Of a stretch of 64,000 nt of DNA, positions 30,075 to 38,997 are shown piece by piece. Both the position numbers and the translations under genes were made by a program. The notes below the pieces were generated by a model. The model searched no databases. It was not told the origin of the DNA and saw only the letters and a program-made list of their open reading frames with translations. Source of the DNA: an uncultured Bacilli bacterium (lineage in GTDB: Bacteria > Bacillota_I > Bacilli_A > RF39 > UBA660). Numbering within the stretch: position 1 is the first letter of the stretch; the number at the start of each line of letters is the position of its first letter. Location of the stretch: the NCBI GenBank assembly GCA_947629405.1, contig CANRDL010000001.1:7502-71501 (forward strand), given 5' to 3'.

Positions 30075-31322
30075 ATGATTAATTTTTTAAAAACTACTAG
30101 TAATTGTGGTGTAAATGATTTTTGCACCGATATTGGTGTTAAAAAAACATTTAAATATTTTGGATATTTATTATTTTTTCTAAAAATAGTTATTCCTTTA
30201 TTAATAATTGTAATGGCAACAATTGACCTATTTAAAGCTATTACAGCTCCCTCACCAGATGAAGAGTTTAAAAAATCTATTTTTTCTATTATAAAAAGAA
30301 TAGTTGCTGGGCTATTAATCTTTTTTGCGCCAACAATTATTTATTTTGTAATTGATTCAATATATAGTTTTCAAAAAATTCAAGATTGTGCAAGTTGTTT
30401 ATTTAAACCTTTTAATTGTGATTTATCAAAGATAGAAAAATGTGAAATAAAAGTAAAAGAGATAAAAATTGATAATTGTAAATCTGGTAGTTTAGAATTA
30501 ACACAAGGTGATTTTCAAAAATTATATCCTATATTTACACCTGCTGATGCTAATAATACTTCTATTAAATGGAAAACAAATAAAAAAAGTATTGTTAGTG
30601 TTGATCAACTTGGTTATATTACTGCTAAAAAGAAAGGTAATGTTACTATTACGGTATCACTAAAAAATGATCCTTCCATCAAAGCAAAATGTAAAATTAA
30701 AGTATCTGATAGACCAAAATATGATAGTAAAGGTGATGAGTCTTCATCAAGTGGTGTAACATCATCCAAAGTAGGTAATTATACTTATTATAATCAATGT
30801 TCTGCTGAGTATAAAGGAACTGGAGCTTTTTGTAATAGTGATCCGTGTAGTGTCGGATGTGGAGCATTTGCTTTGACGATGGTTATTGCTAATTTATCTA
30901 AACCAAATGTTACACCTAGCGATGTTATGGAATGGTTGTGTAATAATGGTCATTATGGTGGTGCTATGGGAGAAGATTTCTTTGATACTACAAAAGCTAA
31001 ATCCAAAAATTTACAGGCGCATTATAACTTAAAAACAACCAATATTAATGGTGGTACAGGTTATCCTTCAGCTAAAACATTGAAAAAGATGGGTAATAAA
31101 TTAAAAAAAGGTGAAATGCTTATTTGTTTAGTACCATATCATTTTATTGTATTAGCTGGAGATTCAGCAGGGAATGTAACTGTTTTAGATCCAGGAAATG
31201 TTTTTAATAATAAAACATATACATCAGTAGAAAGTGCTTATAAAGCAGTATATAATTTTTGGTATCAAAAAAATGGTAATCAATATTCAGGCTCAGTTTG
31301 GTCTTATAAAAAAGCTAATTAA
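30075..31322 (+). CDS. Membrane-anchored Big_2 (Ig-like) plus C39-like cysteine peptidase domain protein
   Basis: N-terminal TM helices. Big_2-like stretch (SIVSVDQLGYITAKKKGNVTITVS). C39_2-like catalytic Cys (CGAFALTMVIANL) and His (YHFIVLAGD). Confidence 0.55.
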   Translation: MINFLKTTSNCGVNDFCTDIGVKKTFKYFGYLLFFLKIVIPLLIIVMATIDLFKAITAPSPDEEFKKSIFSIIKRIVAGLLIFFAPTIIYFVIDSIYSFQKIQDCASCLFKPFNCDLSKIEKCEIKVKEIKIDNCKSGSLELTQGDFQKLYPIFTPADANNTSIKWKTNKKSIVSVDQLGYITAKKKGNVTITVSLKNDPSIKAKCKIKVSDRPKYDSKGDESSSSGVTSSKVGNYTYYNQCSAEYKGTGAFCNSDPCSVGCGAFALTMVIANLSKPNVTPSDVMEWLCNNGHYGGAMGEDFFDTTKAKSKNLQAHYNLKTTNINGGTGYPSAKTLKKMGNKLKKGEMLICLVPYHFIVLAGDSAGNVTVLDPGNVFNNKTYTSVESAYKAVYNFWYQKNGNQYSGSVWSYKKAN

Positions 31323-31334
31323 GGAGGAAAGTAA

Positions 31335-32267
31335 ATGAAAAACTTAAAGGTATTATTTATGGGAACACCAGAATTTAGTGTTAATGTTTTAAATAGTTTG
31401 ATAGAAAATTGTGATGTCGTTGCAGTTATATCTCAACCAGATAAAGTAGTGGGTAGAAAACATAAAATAGAATTTTCTCCTATTAAAAAAGTGGCCGTAA
31501 ATAATAATATAAAATTATTACAACCAGTCAAAATAAAAGATATTTATGAAGATATCAAAAAAATTGATTTTGATATTATAATTACATGTGCTTATGGGCA
31601 AATAATACCTAAAAAAATATTGGATTTACCAGAGCTTGGTTGTATTAATGTTCATGCTTCTTTACTTCCTGAACTAAGAGGTGGGGCACCTATTCATCAT
31701 GCTATAATAGATGGTTATAAAAAAACGGGCATAACTATTATGTATATGGATGAAAAAATGGATACGGGTGATATTATTGCCAGTGAAGAAATCGAAATAA
31801 CTGATGATATGAATATGGGAATTTTACATGATAAATTATCTGCGATGGGAGCTTCTTTATTAATTAATACTTTACCAAAAATAATGGATAATACTAATTT
31901 CAGATTAAAACAAGATGATGAATTTGCCACATATGCTAAAATTATAAAAAGAGAAGATGAACATTTAGACTTTCATAAAAAAGCTCGAGAAATTTTTAAT
32001 AGAGTACGAGGACTTTATCCCAATCCTTTATCATTTATGATTGTAAATGGAGAAGAAATAAAAGTTTTAGAATGTACTTATGAAATATGTAAAACTAAAA
32101 ATATTTCAGTTATTGATTCTATTAGTAAAGATAGTATAAATATTAGTTGTGATGATGGAATTATAAAAATTACGAAAATTAAACCCGCTGGTAAAAAAGA
32201 AATGTTAGTTAGAGATTATTTAAATGGAATAAAAAAAGAAACATTAATTGGAAAAGAGGTTCAATAA
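31335..32267 (+). CDS. fmt: Methionyl-tRNA formyltransferase
   Basis: N-terminal MGTPEFSV and catalytic HASLLPELRGGAPI motif. Confidence 0.9.
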   Translation: MKNLKVLFMGTPEFSVNVLNSLIENCDVVAVISQPDKVVGRKHKIEFSPIKKVAVNNNIKLLQPVKIKDIYEDIKKIDFDIIITCAYGQIIPKKILDLPELGCINVHASLLPELRGGAPIHHAIIDGYKKTGITIMYMDEKMDTGDIIASEEIEITDDMNMGILHDKLSAMGASLLINTLPKIMDNTNFRLKQDDEFATYAKIIKREDEHLDFHKKAREIFNRVRGLYPNPLSFMIVNGEEIKVLECTYEICKTKNISVIDSISKDSINISCDDGIIKITKIKPAGKKEMLVRDYLNGIKKETLIGKEVQ

Positions 32268-32911
32268 TGAAAAAGAATGATGATAATATCATAAAAAAAA
32301 TGTGGAAAACTGAAAGAGGTAGAGCAATTATAAAATTATCTATTTATTTAATCTTTATTATTTTAGTAATAATATTTGTTAATATTGCTTCTTCTATGAA
32401 TAAGATAATAAAAGATACTAAAATTGTAGAAGATGCCGCTCCTACGATTCAAGAAATGAAAGATAATTTACTTAAAAATAATTATAAATATACCTATACA
32501 ATAACTAAAGATGCCAAAAAGACAGTTTATAGTGGAGAAAAACTAAAAAAAGAAGAAGTTGGTACTAAAGAAAATGAAATAGAAACAATAAAATATTATG
32601 TTAATGATGTTGCCTATTATCAACTAAAAATGGGTGAAAAAATCGAAATAAATAATTTATATGATGGGTTTAATATTAATATGATGGATAGTGAATTTAT
32701 CTTAAATCTTATTAAAGATAAATCTACTTTGATAAATCAAAATAAAAAATTAAAAGAGTATTCCTATGAATTTACATATGAAGACAAAAACATTGAAATT
32801 TCATTATTGGCATCAAAAGATGTTATTAAAGAAATTAATATTTTATATGATAATATAGAATATAACTTAAAATATTCAAATATTGGCAAAATAACAGAAT
32901 TAGATATATAA
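32267..32911 (+). CDS. Hypothetical membrane protein (214 aa)
   Basis: Single N-terminal TM. The start overlaps the fmt stop (ATGA). Confidence 0.45.
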   Translation: MKKNDDNIIKKMWKTERGRAIIKLSIYLIFIILVIIFVNIASSMNKIIKDTKIVEDAAPTIQEMKDNLLKNNYKYTYTITKDAKKTVYSGEKLKKEEVGTKENEIETIKYYVNDVAYYQLKMGEKIEINNLYDGFNINMMDSEFILNLIKDKSTLINQNKKLKEYSYEFTYEDKNIEISLLASKDVIKEINILYDNIEYNLKYSNIGKITELDI

Positions 32912-33248
32912 AAACTTAGTATTATTTTTATATATTAGTTATACAGCAAAATACTATTTTAATTATTATTTAAAATAATTTTATTTGACAAAAAAACAAT
33001 ATTATATTAACATAGCTATTTATAAAATAAATATTTTTTAATAATGATTATGATAAATCCAAATTAGATATAATTCAAAATGGGATTAATTTATTTGAAA
33101 AAAGAAAAAAAATCACAAATCAATGATAACTCACAGTTTAATGATGAATATTATAATTCTAAAAAAGAAATATTAAATTTAATTGAAAAAATTAAAAGGA
33201 AGGTAAATTAAATTTCTTTATTTTGCCAATATTTTTTGGGGGTAAAAA

Positions 33249-34187
33249 ATGTTAAATGAAGAAACAAAAAATGAAATTAGGAATTTAATTGATTCTTATG
33301 GTATTAAAAAATGGGATCAAAATTTTTTAGATAAAATAAGTGAAATTGTTAATAATGATGATTATTTTGATAATTGTATTTCTATAATAAAAGATAATCA
33401 TATTAAATGTCCTATGGAAACAGATTATAGAAATACAATATATGAAAATAGTAATTTAATTGAAAAATTTATCGTTTGTACATGTAAAAGTTTAAAAAAA
33501 AATTTAAATTTAAAATATAATGATAAAAATCATCATTTACAAAATAAAAGTGATTTTATAACTCAAAATTTTCTTTTAATATTTTTATATTTACATGAGT
33601 GTTCACATGTTAAACAAAGTTTATATGCTTATAAGGATAAATCTGAATATGATCAAATTAATTCTATATATTATCGATTTAGAGTTTTGGAGTACCGTAG
33701 TATTTTTGATGACCAATATTTTTCAAAAATAAAAAGGATTATACGACAAAGAAACTATCATAATCATCATGATGATTATTTTTATGAAAGAAATGCTGAT
33801 ATAGAATCTTTAAAAGAATTAATGGCGATTTATGATAATAATTTTTTCAAAGATGCTATTGATATTAATTATATAAAAAAATTAATAAGTTATTTGTCAT
33901 TAGCTTATTATAAAGGTTATGAAAAAAAAGGGAATAAAATTATTTCACCATTTGAAAAAACTCTTAAATATTGTTTTTTTCCACCGGAAAATTTTAATTT
34001 TCAAAATTTACCATTTGAAATAATATTTGAACACGGTTTTCCTATAACTTTTAACGAATATCAAGAAATATTTAAAAGTACTAAAATTTTTCAAAATAAT
34101 TATTATAAACGTTTTGAAAATTTCAAAAATGTTGATCAGGATTATCATAATATTAATAAAAAGATAAAATCTTTAAATCAGAAATGA
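33249..34187 (+). CDS. HExxH-motif protein, paralog 1 (putative metallopeptidase-like; family unknown)
   Basis: 312 aa. LHECSHVKQ motif. Conserved C-terminal NFNFQNLPFEIIFEHGFPITFNEYQEIFKSTKIF. Confidence 0.5.
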   Translation: MLNEETKNEIRNLIDSYGIKKWDQNFLDKISEIVNNDDYFDNCISIIKDNHIKCPMETDYRNTIYENSNLIEKFIVCTCKSLKKNLNLKYNDKNHHLQNKSDFITQNFLLIFLYLHECSHVKQSLYAYKDKSEYDQINSIYYRFRVLEYRSIFDDQYFSKIKRIIRQRNYHNHHDDYFYERNADIESLKELMAIYDNNFFKDAIDINYIKKLISYLSLAYYKGYEKKGNKIISPFEKTLKYCFFPPENFNFQNLPFEIIFEHGFPITFNEYQEIFKSTKIFQNNYYKRFENFKNVDQDYHNINKKIKSLNQK

Positions 34188-34371
34188 AATAATTGACAAA
34201 AAAATAAAAATATACTAGTATATATAAAAAAATCAAATACATCGAGAGAAAATTTTATCTGCTAATGAGGTTATTATAATTTTAAAGAAGAAATATTATA
34301 TTTAATTGAAAAATTAAAAGGAAGGTAAATCAATTTTCTTTTGTTTTGCCAATATTTTTTGGGGGTAAAAA

Positions 34372-35289
34372 ATGTTAAATGAAGAAACAAAAAATGAAAT
34401 TAGGAATTTAATTGATTCTTATGGTATTAAAAAATGGGATCAAAAATTTTTAAATAAATTAAGTGAAATTGTTAATAATGATGATTATTTTGATAATTGC
34501 ATTTCTATGATAAAAGATAATCATATTAAATGTCCTATGAAAACAACTATTGAAAATATAATATATGAAAATAATAAGTTAATTGAAGAAATGATTATTT
34601 GGACATGTAAATATTTAAAAAAAGATTTAAACTTAAAAGATAATGATAAATATCATCATTTACAAAATAAAAATGATTTTATAACTCAAAATTTTCTTTT
34701 AATATTTGCGTATTTACATGAATGTTCACATGTTAAACAAAATTTATGTGCATTGAATAATAAATCAGAATATAGTCAAATTAATTCTATATATTATCGT
34801 TTTTATAATTTTGATTCTCAAAATTTTTCAAAAATAAAAACATTTATAAGACGAAGAAACTATCATACATATCATGCTGATTATTTTTATGAAAGAAATG
34901 CTTATATAGAATCTTTAAAAGAATTAATGGGAATTTATGATAATAATTTTTTCAAAGATGAAATTGATTATAATTATATAAAAAAATTAATAAGTCATAT
35001 GTCATTAATTTATTATACAGGTTATGAAAAAAAAGGTAATAAAATTATTTCACCATTTGAAAAAACTCTTAAATATAGTTTGTTCCCACCTGAAAATTTT
35101 AATTTTCAAAATTTACCATTTGAAGTAATATTTGAACATGGTTTTCCTATAACTTTTAATGAATATCAAGAAATATTTAAAAGTACTAAAATTTTTAAAA
35201 AAGATTATAAACTTTTTGAAAATTTCAATAATATTGTTTCGGATTATCATAATATTAATAAAAAAATAAAATCTTTAAATAGAAAATAA
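34372..35289 (+). CDS. HExxH-motif protein, paralog 2
   Basis: 305 aa. Same N-terminus (MLNEETKNEIRNLIDSYGIKKWDQ) and the same LHECSHVKQ motif as paralog 1. Confidence 0.5.
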   Translation: MLNEETKNEIRNLIDSYGIKKWDQKFLNKLSEIVNNDDYFDNCISMIKDNHIKCPMKTTIENIIYENNKLIEEMIIWTCKYLKKDLNLKDNDKYHHLQNKNDFITQNFLLIFAYLHECSHVKQNLCALNNKSEYSQINSIYYRFYNFDSQNFSKIKTFIRRRNYHTYHADYFYERNAYIESLKELMGIYDNNFFKDEIDYNYIKKLISHMSLIYYTGYEKKGNKIISPFEKTLKYSLFPPENFNFQNLPFEVIFEHGFPITFNEYQEIFKSTKIFKKDYKLFENFNNIVSDYHNINKKIKSLNRK

Positions 35290-35364
35290 AGAGTAAATAA
35301 AATTATTGGCAAATAATTTAAGTTATGTTATAATGATTTTATAAAAAAAGGCCATGATTAAGAA

Positions 35365-35560
35365 GTAGTAATAAGAGATTTATTTAAAGAGAGTCTATGG
35401 TTGGTGGAAATAGATAATAATATCTTATGAATTCGTCTTAGGAGCTTTATAAACAAAATTTATAACGGTGACGCGTTATAGTCATTAAGGTGTATATTTA
35501 TATACATAAATTAAGGTGGTACCACGTAGACACACGTCCTTATAGGATGTGTTTTTTTAA
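35365..35560 (+). promoter_or_regulatory. T-box riboswitch leader (Phe specifier UUC) with terminator
   Basis: aaagagagtctatggttggtggaaa stem-I element, specifier region atgaaUUCgtc, T-box sequence aaattaaggtggtaccacg, and terminator acacacgtcc...ggatgtgt followed by TTTTTTT. Confidence 0.8.
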
Positions 35561-35579
35561 ATTTTAAGGAGGAATATAA

Positions 35580-36623
35580 ATGGATAATTTAGAAAATATT
35601 TTAAGTGAGTTAGAAAAACAAATAGCTGATGTAAAAAATATTAATGAAGTAAATAATTTAAAAATTGAATATTTAGGAAAAAAAGGTAAAATAGGAAGTT
35701 TATCTTCCATAATCAAAACTTTACCAGTAGAAGAGAAAAAAGAATTTGGTAAAAAATTAAACGATTTAAAAATGAAAGCTACGGATATAATTAATGAAAA
35801 AGAAAATAAAATTAATGAAGATATCCTAAATGATAAATTGAAAAATGAAAGTATTGATATAACTTTACCAGCTACTAAAATTCCTATGGGTGTTTCTAAC
35901 ATACTAGAAAGAATTGTGGAAGAAATAGAAGAACTTTTAATTTCTATGGGATATGATGTAGTTGATGGTCCTGAAATTGAAGAAGATAAATATAATTTTG
36001 AACTTTTAAATATTCCTAAAGGACATCCAGCAAGAGATGCTCAAGATACTTTTTATATAAAAGATGAAGAAATACTTTTGCGTAGTCAAACATCTCCTGT
36101 TCAGGCTCGGGTAATGCTTGAAAATGAAGGGAAAAATCCTATAAGAATGATTTGTCCAGGTAAAACTTATCGAAGAGATGACGATGATGCTACTCATTCT
36201 CATCAATTTATGCAAATAGAAGGATTACTTGTTGATAAAGATATTTCATTATCTGATTTAAAAGGTACAATTGATGAAATAGTAAAAAAATTATTTGGTG
36301 AAGATTGTGTAACTCGTTTTAGACCAAGTTATTATCAGTTTACAGAACCATCTGTTGAAGTAGATATTAGTTGTTTTAAATGTAAGGGAAGTGGCTGCAA
36401 TATCTGTAAAAATACCGGTTGGATTACAGTAGCTGGTGCGGGAATAGTTCATCCTAATGTTTTAAAAAATTGTGGTTATGATCCTAATGTTTGGTCAGGA
36501 TTTGCTTTTGGTTTTGGAGCAGAAAGACTTGCTATGCTTAAATATGGAATTAATGATATTAGAGCATTTTATACTACCGATTTAAGAGAACTTGAAAGAT
36601 TTTCAAGAAAGGATAGTGAATAA
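35580..36623 (+). CDS. pheS: Phenylalanine--tRNA ligase alpha subunit
   Basis: Class II motifs (FRPSYYQFTEPS, GAGIVHPNVL). RBS AAGGAGG. Confidence 0.93.
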   Translation: MDNLENILSELEKQIADVKNINEVNNLKIEYLGKKGKIGSLSSIIKTLPVEEKKEFGKKLNDLKMKATDIINEKENKINEDILNDKLKNESIDITLPATKIPMGVSNILERIVEEIEELLISMGYDVVDGPEIEEDKYNFELLNIPKGHPARDAQDTFYIKDEEILLRSQTSPVQARVMLENEGKNPIRMICPGKTYRRDDDDATHSHQFMQIEGLLVDKDISLSDLKGTIDEIVKKLFGEDCVTRFRPSYYQFTEPSVEVDISCFKCKGSGCNICKNTGWITVAGAGIVHPNVLKNCGYDPNVWSGFAFGFGAERLAMLKYGINDIRAFYTTDLRELERFSRKDSE

Positions 36624-36624
36624 T

Positions 36625-38997
36625 ATGATTAGTTTAGAATGGGTAAAAGATTATATTGATATTGAAAATGAAGATTTAAAAGAATTAGCTGTAAAAATTA
36701 CGAAAGCGGGAATTAATGTTGAAAAAGTTATCTCTAATCATATTAATAATTTAGTTATTGGTAAAGTTTTAGAGTGTGTGCCGCATCCAGATTCTGATCA
36801 TTTAAATGTTTGTAAAGTAGATGTGGGTAATGAAATATTACAAATTGTCTGTGGTGCTCCTAATGTTCGAAAAGATTTAAAAGTTATTGTTTCAAGAGTA
36901 GGAGCAATACTTCCTGGCGATTTTGAAATCAAAAAAAGCGTAATAAGAGGAGTAGAATCAAATGGTATGATGTGTGCCTTATACGAATTAGGTTTAGAAG
37001 AAAAAACGGAAGAAACTTATCGTAAAGGAATTCATGAATTAGATAATGATGCTCCAATTGGTGTTGATCCTTTAAAATATTTAGGTTTAGATAATACTTT
37101 ATATGAATTGGATATTCATAAGCATCGTAATAATGATTGTTATTATCATATTGGTTTTGCTTATGAAATTGGCGCAATTATTAATAAGAAAGTAAAATTA
37201 CCAGATGATTCTTATACTGAAATTTCTGATTCAATTAAAGATCATTTTAAATTACAAGTTAATACTTCAAAATGTCCTTATTTTTTAGCTAAAATGGTAA
37301 AAAATATAACTATAAAAGAATCTCCTGATTTTATTAAAAAAAGATTAATTGCTGCTGGAATGCGACCAATTAATAATGTTGTAGATATTTCCAATTATGT
37401 TATGTTGGAATATGGTCAACCAACTCATTTTTATGATTTTGATAAAATTGGTGATCATTTAATTGTTAGAGATGCCAAAGAAAATGAAAAAATTATAACT
37501 TTAGATGAAAAAGAAAGAATTTTATCAAAAGACGATATTGTAATTGCTAATGATAAAGAAGCATTATGTATTGCTGGAGTTATGGGTGGTTTAAATTCCG
37601 AAGTTACTGATGATACTAAAAATATTTTAATTGAAAGTGCTATATTTGAGGCTACTTCTATTAGATACACTTCAACTAAACTTAACTTAAAAAGTGAAGC
37701 ATCTATTAGATACAGCAAAGGTTTAAATTATGAATATACAAAAAAAGCTATTAATAGGGCTTGTCATTTATTAGAAAAATATGCTGATGCTACTATTTTA
37801 TCTGATATTGTTTCTTATGATGATGTCGATAAAACTAAAAAAATTGTAAAATTTAAAGCTGAAGAAATAAATAAAATGTTAGGAATTAAAATAAATAATG
37901 ATGATATTAAATTAGAACTTAATAGATTAGATTTTAAATTTAATTTTAAAAATGATGTATTTGAAGTCGAAATACCAAATAGAAGATTAGATATTGATCC
38001 AAATATTAATGATATTGCTGAAGAAATTGGCAGATTATATGGTTATCATAATTTAAAATCAACATTACCTAAAACAGAAATAAGAAAAGGTAAATATGTC
38101 GGTGATGTTAAATTTAGAAAGATGATTTCTAAAAGATTAAGATCCCTTGGTTTAAATGAATGTAAAACTTATACTTTAACATCTCCTGAAATGGCAAGTA
38201 AGTTTCGATATGATGATAAGAAAAATATTGTTTTAAATAAACCTATGAGTGTAGATAAATCAGTTATTAGAACTACTTTGATTCCTTCATTATTAAATGT
38301 TTTTGAATATAATAAAACAAGAAAAGTAGACGATGTACTTATTTATGAAATAAGTAAAACTTATGATGATGCTTACAATGAAGATACTAAAATTGCTATA
38401 TTAATGCAAGGTAATTATCTAATAAATAAATGGCAAAATACTAAAATCGCTGTTGATTTTTACTTAATAAAAGGAATAGTGGAGGATTTATTAAATTATT
38501 TAGGACTTGCAAATAGATATTCATTTGAAGTTGGTAATATTACTGATTTACATCCAGGTATTAGTGCTGAAATTATTTTAGATAAAGAAAAAATAGGTAT
38601 TATAGGAAGAGTTCATCCTAAACTTAAAAAAGATAATATTTTTGTCGTTGAACTTTCAATGAATAAATTAATGAAAAATATTAAACCAATAAAATACATT
38701 GAAGCATCAAAATATCCAGAAATAAAAAAAGATTTAGCATTTATTGTTAAAAAAGATGTCCAATCTAAAGATATCATGACGCAAATAAAGAAATCTGGTG
38801 GAAGATTACTTACTAATATTGATATCTTTGATGTTTATGTAGGTGAAAATATTGCATCAGATGAAAAATCAATTGCTTATTCTCTTACTTTTAATGATCC
38901 GACAAGAACTTTATCTGATGATGAAGTAATGGAAGTATTTAATAAAATTATTAAAGATGTAGAAGAAAAATGTAAAGCTAAACTTCGCGATAAATAA
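36625..38997 (+). CDS. pheT: Phenylalanine--tRNA ligase beta subunit
   Basis: Start MISLEWVKDYIDI immediately after the pheS stop. tRNA-binding, B3/B4 and B5 domains are present. The track's 36592 start is a TTG read-through. Confidence 0.92.
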   Translation: MISLEWVKDYIDIENEDLKELAVKITKAGINVEKVISNHINNLVIGKVLECVPHPDSDHLNVCKVDVGNEILQIVCGAPNVRKDLKVIVSRVGAILPGDFEIKKSVIRGVESNGMMCALYELGLEEKTEETYRKGIHELDNDAPIGVDPLKYLGLDNTLYELDIHKHRNNDCYYHIGFAYEIGAIINKKVKLPDDSYTEISDSIKDHFKLQVNTSKCPYFLAKMVKNITIKESPDFIKKRLIAAGMRPINNVVDISNYVMLEYGQPTHFYDFDKIGDHLIVRDAKENEKIITLDEKERILSKDDIVIANDKEALCIAGVMGGLNSEVTDDTKNILIESAIFEATSIRYTSTKLNLKSEASIRYSKGLNYEYTKKAINRACHLLEKYADATILSDIVSYDDVDKTKKIVKFKAEEINKMLGIKINNDDIKLELNRLDFKFNFKNDVFEVEIPNRRLDIDPNINDIAEEIGRLYGYHNLKSTLPKTEIRKGKYVGDVKFRKMISKRLRSLGLNECKTYTLTSPEMASKFRYDDKKNIVLNKPMSVDKSVIRTTLIPSLLNVFEYNKTRKVDDVLIYEISKTYDDAYNEDTKIAILMQGNYLINKWQNTKIAVDFYLIKGIVEDLLNYLGLANRYSFEVGNITDLHPGISAEIILDKEKIGIIGRVHPKLKKDNIFVVELSMNKLMKNIKPIKYIEASKYPEIKKDLAFIVKKDVQSKDIMTQIKKSGGRLLTNIDIFDVYVGENIASDEKSIAYSLTFNDPTRTLSDDEVMEVFNKIIKDVEEKCKAKLRDK

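Follow-up and report, generated by a model that had tools for sequence, protein, structure and literature searches.

Two copies of one gene, here called gene B, lie head to tail, immediately followed by the promoter and T-box of pheST, in a 64,000-nt stretch of DNA from an uncultured gut Bacilli lineage (the window, G+C content 23.8%; all positions are in window numbering, and L001-L017 denote the other contigs and loci fetched for comparison). Our preferred reading, to which we give a probability of roughly 0.6, is that this is a duplicated, strain-variable gene from a rare, uncatalogued family of putative gluzincin-type zinc metallohydrolases, and most likely a peptidase. The copies are separated by a junction that is seen independently in a second sample, they recombine between strains, and they share with remote homologues a conserved HExxH motif and a downstream glutamate. 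These features, like the unit structure, the strain polymorphism, the chimeric one-copy gene of a relative, the rapid evolution and the lack of a catalogued relative, are observed directly, whereas metal binding, peptidase activity and any substrate are inferred.

The tandem cassette upstream of pheST

The two units are alignable over about 1.1 kb, and the repeat search gave start-to-start spacings of 1123, 1105 and 1102 nt. When the region upstream of copy 1 (c1) and the spacer between the copies were aligned with the upstream regions of four related loci, each unit proved to open with a sigma-70-like promoter and to continue with a decayed 3' remnant of a second protein-coding gene (gene A) and then, behind a GGGGG ribosome-binding site, with gene B. 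The elements of the cassette and of its right-hand border are the following.

32985-33013, + strand: promoter-like element of unit 1 (TTGACA-17-TAACAT), from the promoter scan; true left end of the repeat
33046-33211, + strand: gene-A remnant of unit 1, from alignment to the L004 gene, which is intact, and to copies in L002, L005 and L009 that are partly decayed
33238-33242, + strand: ribosome-binding site of c1, GGGGG, 6 nt upstream of the ATG, read from the sequence and kept in all strains
33249-34187, + strand: gene B copy 1 (c1), 312 aa, from the list of open reading frames (ORFs)
34193-34221, + strand: promoter-like element of unit 2 (TTGACA-17-TAGTAT), from the promoter scan and the repeat
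34236-34328, + strand: gene-A remnant of unit 2, heavily deleted and ending in TAA at 34326-34328, from the alignment
34361-34365, + strand: ribosome-binding site of copy 2 (c2), GGGGG, from the sequence and the unit alignment
34372-35289, + strand: gene B copy 2 (c2), 305 aa, from the ORF list
35306-35334, + strand: pheST promoter (TTGGCA-17-TATAAT, with an upstream TG), the best promoter match of the region, 11/12
35345-35544, + strand: pheST T-box leader, Rfam RF00230, 120.5 bits, E 2.7e-27

The coding sequences of c1 and c2 are 89.7% identical in the codon alignment, the whole units have a mean column identity of 92% (MAFFT), and the proteins are 79% identical (E 4e-175). This similarity is unevenly distributed along the gene. 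The first 24 residues are the same in both copies (MLNEETKNEIRNLIDSYGIKKWDQ) and LHECSHVKQ is common to the two, the centre is more divergent (79-84% DNA identity at codons 46-90 and 106-180, plus an 18-nt indel), codons 211-285 are well kept (93-96%) and the final 35 or so codons are less alike (86-89%). An initial annotation of this locus had described a tandem duplication of an HExxH-protein gene directly upstream of the pheST T-box, with identical N-termini, a shared LHECSHVKQ and a divergent middle, and on all of these points our analysis agrees with it, pheS itself beginning at 35580. It also described the C-terminal 70 or so residues as almost identical, which overstates the similarity of the final 35 or so codons.

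The tandem duplication of this chromosomal cassette is genuine. L017, which comes from a different sample, matches window 32158-34398 at 99.96% identity and passes from the fmt operon through c1 and the inter-copy spacer into 27 nt of c2, so that the unique junction of the head-to-tail direct repeat is present in an independent contig. L001, from a third sample, corresponds to window 34344-36639; it starts in the shared leader, spans c2 and the T-box and reaches into pheS. These contigs overlap by 55 nt and both break inside a stretch that is identical between the units, which is how a k-mer assembler behaves at a true repeat. The source of the window is a metagenome-assembled genome (MAG), and single-copy c1-type and single-copy c2-type genes are each found in other assemblies, as would be expected if an assembler had stitched two strain alleles together; however, since L017 crosses the junction from c1 to unit 2, L001 extends from the same repeat into pheS, and the inter-copy spacer has its own promoter and a distinct gene-A remnant, we regard such an artefact as extremely improbable.

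The left end of the repeat lies at 32985-33013, because a third related promoter-like element precedes unit 1. The promoters of both units are covered by a direct repeat (32982-33014 and 34190-34222, 79% identity); the element of unit 1 is also kept upstream of gene A in L002, L005, L009 and L004, and that of unit 2 is nearly identical to one upstream of gene A in L004. The right boundary is marked by the pheST promoter, which is outside the duplication. The initial annotation had placed a TTGACA element after each copy, which applies to c1 (34193-34221), whereas the element after c2 is the TTGGCA of the pheS promoter. The similarity between the cassette and pheS promoters around ATTG(A/G)CAAA is too short and AT-rich to be judged as a duplication junction. 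A terminator-like hairpin was found by the terminator scan at 35532-35552, at the T-box.

About 100 nt upstream of each ATG are common to the two units (33149-33248 and 34272-34371); this stretch ends ...TTTTGCCAATATTTTTTGGGGGTAAAAAATG and terminates in GGGGGTAAAAAATG in both. It had been taken at first for a shared leader of about 80 nt, and the sharing stands, but the alignment of the upstream regions identifies the stretch as the 3' tail of gene A followed by the ribosome-binding site. A structured RNA or riboswitch was rejected here on the same alignment, together with the absence of a significant RNA fold (z -0.57 and -1.09) and of any Rfam match in the shared 100 nt. Within the coding sequence of c2, a sub-threshold match to the alphaproteobacterial small RNA ar15 (35063-35146; 26.8 bits against a gathering score of 40) was set aside as chance. 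Additionally, the stretch 33149-33385, which covers the 100 nt or so ahead of the ATG together with the initial 45 codons of B, is 96-100% identical at the DNA level in L002, L004, L005 and L009. This holds even for L009, the flanks of which are only 77-89% identical, and the proportion of synonymous differences (pS) is 0.05-0.10; recombination or a nucleotide-level constraint is possibly responsible.

Gene A is intact only in L004, where it encodes 207 aa (L004:114-737) with the repeat GLDVSxYAKPEFxxxQM present three to four times. Elsewhere only shorter ORFs remain, of 95 codons in L005, 73 in L009, 71 in L002 and 44 (33080-33211) in unit 1 of the window; the remnant of unit 2 is shorter and frameshifted by a 1-nt deletion relative to unit 1. 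A conserved partnership between A and B was considered and rejected, since A is absent from the other contexts of the B family and is decaying here. The gene-A family counts at least 249 uncharacterised proteins, some of which are fused to DUF7666 or DUF6908, and its repeat also occurs in three unannotated 'Bacteriophage sp.' records from human faeces.

Gene B as a putative gluzincin-type metallohydrolase

Relatives of gene B are rare and have no catalogued family. A word-indexed search of 5.8 billion proteins returned only seven close relatives, all from the same lineage, and almost nothing new was recovered when it was run with a wide alignment. A HMMER profile search of 1.84 billion representatives gave 37 proteins at E <= 1e-3; one is a close relative, and the other 36 are remote members, 126-306 aa long. 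A scan of a genome collection found a relative in one MAG, and the JGI metagenome scan found none. The 18 members that were sampled (10 by cluster and 8 by contig, two in both) come from metagenome assemblies only, and none of the 10 with clusters looked up carries a name. In agreement with the initial annotation, which had recognised no protein family, no curated family matches: single-sequence scans against Pfam, NCBIfam, PHROG, PADLOC and PDB returned noise only, and when 38 members were scanned one by one against Pfam, PHROGs and NCBIfam no family was matched by more than one of them, the best peptidase-like matches being to DUF4344 (E 0.019), M91 (0.16) and M48 (0.24). A profile search against PDB sequences gave chance phosphatase matches only, and three remote members searched singly against PDB sequences gave nothing relevant.

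What the family does share is a motif pattern, from which we conclude that it is most probably a family of gluzincin-type zinc metallohydrolases. In an alignment of 38 sequences (A3; 20-33% identity), H116 and E117 are each present in 37 of 38, H120, Q123, E180 and A183 in all 38, and position 184 is N or D in 35; T238 and G263 are also invariant, and Y141, Y170 and Y224, like H116 and E117, are nearly so. The HExxH is thus conserved across remote homologues, at odds with the suggestion made initially that it could be coincidental. The family signature reads HExxHxxQ, 42-64 residues (most frequently 49) and E-[RYH]-x-A-[NDH], and in c1 it takes the form H116-E-C-S-H120-V-K-Q123 and E180-R-N-A-D184. 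The insertion between HExxH and the glutamate in known gluzincins is of 24-64 residues (PMC3267712). The conserved glutamate of the B family falls within that spacing and is a candidate ligand. The metal would then be bound by H116 and H120, both on the helix with HExxH, and by E180, on the helix with the downstream E-x-x-A-[N/D] motif, and E117 would act as the general base.

An AlphaFold2 model built from the 38-sequence alignment (mean predicted local distance difference test score, pLDDT, 85.6; predicted template modelling score, pTM, 0.89) has two N-terminal helices, a three-stranded sheet (45-66) and a helix at 68-85, followed by a long helix (103-129) with the HExxH at its centre, two further helices, another at 178-194 with E180 at its start, and a C-terminal helical region with a small hairpin near an ISPxExT motif. 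The order of secondary-structure elements in this model is zincin-like. The protein is predicted to be soluble and cytoplasmic, because a hydropathy scan detected no transmembrane or signal-like segment (maximum 19-residue Kyte-Doolittle mean 1.03; mean hydropathy over the 25 N-terminal residues -1.3); the initial proposal of a variable surface family is therefore unlikely to hold.

The six family contexts that we examined are ordinary Firmicute chromosomal neighbourhoods with no shared partner gene. Contig look-up placed members near genes for Lon, MutS, NusB, exonuclease VII and SpoIVB; for Tad pilus proteins and YebC; for a GNAT acetyltransferase, an AAA ATPase and a short-chain dehydrogenase; for DnaJ; and for an M20 peptidase.

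Compared with the M13 and M48 gluzincins, the B family has its HExxH on a long helix and a small sheet before that helix, both according to the model, and an invariant glutamate 42-64 residues further on in an E-x-x-A-[N/D] motif on another helix. The latter is similar to the motifs on the Glu helix in both enzyme groups: neprilysin-type M13 members have HExxH followed by GENIAD and Ste24/HtpX-type M48 members HExxH followed by ExxAD. Unlike these enzymes, which are membrane-anchored or much larger, B would be a soluble protein of about 270-310 aa; it has no detectable sequence or fold similarity to them, and the Gln at position +3 from its second His is invariant. In addition, we know of no counterpart of its C-terminal motifs ISPxExT and EHGLPI in M13 or M48 gluzincins.

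Other HExxH families that had been put forward were not supported by the searches. ImmA/IrrE proteins (M78) are likewise small and cytoplasmic and have, downstream of their HExxH, a Glu-x-x-Ala-Asn-like motif, and ImmA/IrrE proteases are often fast-evolving and strain-variable. However, the Peptidase_M78 profile (PF06114) matches none of the 38 B members and no PHROG match recurs among them, the B spacer from His to Glu is about twice as long, no helix-turn-helix repressor gene is adjacent in the window or in the family contexts (a MerR gene lies downstream only in L014), and B was not found on the phages and plasmids searched; membership is thus not supported. As for SprT/Wss1-like proteases, the weak top matches in a viral structure library include SprT-like proteins, a reflection of the sheet plus HExxH helix, but these are not significant (E >= 0.6, TM <= 0.33). 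Furthermore, B has a distant Glu instead of the third His of HExxHxxxxxH: the residues after H120 read VKQSLYAY, with no His among the ten that follow it and none conserved there in the family; this membership is not supported either. A divergent peptide deformylase was considered because def usually sits beside fmt, and was discarded since B is helical, has about 300 aa and lacks the EGC and GxGxAAxQ motifs.

Several observations weigh against the metallohydrolase reading. No peptidase family is matched by sequence in Pfam, NCBIfam or PDB. Foldseek searches of PDB with the model were not significant (best E 0.33, all TM-scores below 0.25), and those of BFVD gave only weak matches labelled 'Peptidase' or 'SprT-like' (probability 0.28-0.69, E >= 0.6). 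Two family members have lost one motif residue each, P0026 reading HQxxH and P0038 RExxH, and c2 keeps HECSHVKQ but reads ERNAY, the only Tyr at the N/D position among the 38 sequences. No conserved neighbour that would hint at a substrate was found in the contexts, and the overall rate of protein evolution described below is compatible with relaxed constraint too. With regard to c2, the Tyr is its residue 178, at alignment position 184 in c1 numbering, and this copy may have altered or lost activity.

The lack of any fold or sequence link to a zincin and the members without E117 or H116 would also fit a protein that is not a hydrolase, in which His, Glu and Gln bind a metal or ligand in a structural or regulatory role within a novel all-helical fold, and the HExxH-Glu pattern is convergent. 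To our knowledge, the invariant Gln of HExxHxxQ is likewise unfamiliar in established zincin families. We consider this improbable, because in a family of 20-33% identity the top-conserved residues are exactly those of HExxH and E-x-x-A-[N/D] at gluzincin spacing, and in the model these motifs lie on a pair of helices preceded by a small sheet, an arrangement found in zincins. A gluzincin-type metallohydrolase remains the reading that we prefer.

Allele exchange between strains and rapid evolution

Copy number differs among related genomes, a comparison that the initial annotation had proposed. In a hidden Markov model scan of all the loci fetched, two B copies were detected only in the window. 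A single copy is present at the same site in L002, L003 and L005-L009, all of which also have a 214-aa gene upstream of B, and in the more distant L014. L004 also has one copy, directly upstream of T-box-pheST, on a contig that ends 113 nt upstream of gene A.

The single B gene of L002 (10001-10936) is a chimera of the two copies. In c1 coordinates, all distinguishing sites as far as about 33987 are c1-type and those from 34020 are c2-type, which corresponds to a single crossover within a 32-nt stretch that is identical between c1 and c2 and is just what the collapse of a two-copy locus would leave. Its two parts are 100% identical to the window (33249-34019 and 35100-35289), whereas the flanks of about 5 kb on each side are 97.0-97.1% identical, which indicates that the cassette moved between strains recently; moreover, so clean a crossover chimera argues that copy number changes by recombination. 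L004 shows the opposite pattern, with a background 97.4-98.8% identical to the window and a B gene that shares no more than 91% identity with c2 and, with c1, 88.6% by codon alignment or 87.5% by blastn. We propose that B alleles swap between strains by homologous recombination and that copy number can fall from two to one through a crossover between the copies.

The synonymous divergence between c1 and c2 (dS 0.15; nonsynonymous divergence, dN, 0.10) compares with strain-level dS values of 0.045-0.16 at pheS, fmt and the 214-aa gene, and their DNA differs by about 10% against a strain background of about 3%. These figures suggest that the copies are old paralogues, or alleles of different lineages that became stacked, and not a fresh duplicate; the recent duplication followed by diversification that had been proposed initially does not fit them. 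The arrangement has the features of an ordinary bacterial tandem duplication, i.e. a head-to-tail repeat of about 1.1-1.2 kb, a clean one-copy crossover chimera and a copy number that is polymorphic among strains. It departs from one in that the copies are about 10% divergent, hence old or imported and not freshly amplified, and in that each unit has its own promoter and pseudogene remnant. In the distant L014, fmt (72% amino acid identity), a 218-aa gene (60%) and B (32%) follow in the same order as in the window, which indicates that B has long been vertically resident at this site, 3' of fmt and the 214-aa membrane-protein gene, with rapid divergence.

Gene B evolves fast at the protein level. 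The dN/dS ratio lies between 0.58 and 0.78 in 13 of 15 pairs, in paralogues and orthologues alike. The remaining two pairs, c1-L002 (0.41) and c2-L005 (0.35), fall below this range but are nearly identical and so differ by few substitutions. The flanking pheS, fmt and 214-aa gene have ratios of 0.02-0.24. The segment around HExxH (codons 91-125) is strongly constrained, with ratios of nonsynonymous to synonymous proportions (pN/pS) of 0.06-0.48 in six of seven pairs, the seventh (c2-L009) being without synonymous changes and its ratio undefined. At codons 46-90, pN/pS is 1.3-2.6 in paralogue and orthologue pairs, with 0-4 synonymous changes in each, and is not significant. Since the pattern of conserved ends and variable centre and a dN/dS of about 0.7 are also found between single-copy orthologues, fast evolution is a property of gene B and not a result of its duplication.

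The overall dN/dS, the pseudogenisation of gene A to a varying degree in every strain but one, the unique substitution of c2 at a conserved motif position and the very rare, patchy distribution of the family would all be expected if B were dispensable and drifting to loss like gene A, its duplication being neutral and its high dN/dS reflecting relaxed constraint only. This is very unlikely in view of the constraint on the motif segment, of the persistence of B at the same site down to 32% identity, and of the state of its reading frame. The B ORFs are intact in all strains with indels in multiples of three; some 94 substitutions between c1 and c2 have made no stop codon and both indels are in frame; and, apart from one truncated fragment, the nine close homologues all have an unbroken frame of about 305 codons. 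At 24% G+C, about 9% of random codons are expected to be stops (calculated from base composition), so the open frame points to selection on the B protein.

Duplication, allele exchange and fast evolution would also be products of diversifying selection if B were a strain-level conflict gene, either an anti-phage or anti-mobile-element protease or an effector/immunity-type factor, the variable regions of which track a variable target; an immunity or effector family had already been suggested in the initial annotation. Between the window and L004, B alleles are 9-11% divergent against a background of 1-3%, and yet alleles are 100% identical between two strains that are 3% apart elsewhere, copy number is polymorphic, gene-A relatives occur in phage-like faecal contigs, and the ratio at codons 46-90 exceeds 1. 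However, that ratio carries the reservation on synonymous changes given above, gene A is decaying and hence dispensable, and B has no match in the phage and plasmid collections, no hit among PADLOC models of known anti-phage defence and no conserved partner in its six contexts, all of them ordinary chromosomal ones. We therefore consider a conflict gene unlikely. A more specific form of this idea is quite unlikely: gene B would be the first member of a new zincin-like fold family, a cytoplasmic metalloprotease with a variable target, for example a phage or mobile-element protein; residues 46-90 (the sheet and its backing helix) and the helices after the active site (125-180) would co-evolve with that target, and divergent alleles would be kept, swapped and at times stacked in tandem by recombination. 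A strain-variable gene of the putative metallohydrolase family thus remains our preferred reading.

Neighbouring genes and significance

The cassette is set in a neighbourhood of housekeeping genes. Upstream of it, the 214-aa protein (32267-32911) has one N-terminal hydrophobic segment and no Pfam match; its gene overlaps the fmt stop codon and is therefore probably co-transcribed with fmt, it is 60% identical in L014, and it is always found just upstream of B. The fmt gene itself (31335-32267) is only 70% identical at the protein level to its counterpart in the MAG L009 (L009:8004-8933; dS 0.92, dN 0.21), although identity is 89% for the 214-aa gene next to it and dN is 0.033 for pheS; it looks as if the fmt region of one lineage was replaced by a divergent allele. 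Between priA and fmt, where many Firmicutes carry def, lies a gene for a 415-aa predicted membrane protein (30075-31322) that has a Big_2 domain and is rich in Cys in its C-terminal region. Downstream, the mechanically called ORF of pheT starts at TTG 36592 and overlaps pheS; a start at the ATG near 36625 (MISLEWVKDY), as in relatives, is likelier.

The mechanism of duplication is an ordinary, textbook one, the findings have no bearing on any long-standing open question, and the locus is an example of a hypervariable, recombining gene within a conserved housekeeping neighbourhood. For annotation, the practical value is that alignment A3 could serve as the basis of a Pfam-style model. For the family, the locus offers a natural experiment, with two divergent alleles in one genome, a chimera of them in a sister strain and a motif variant in c2. 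If the assignment is true, it would add a small, uncatalogued family to the gluzincin-type metallohydrolases, with a predicted fold that has no detectable solved relative.

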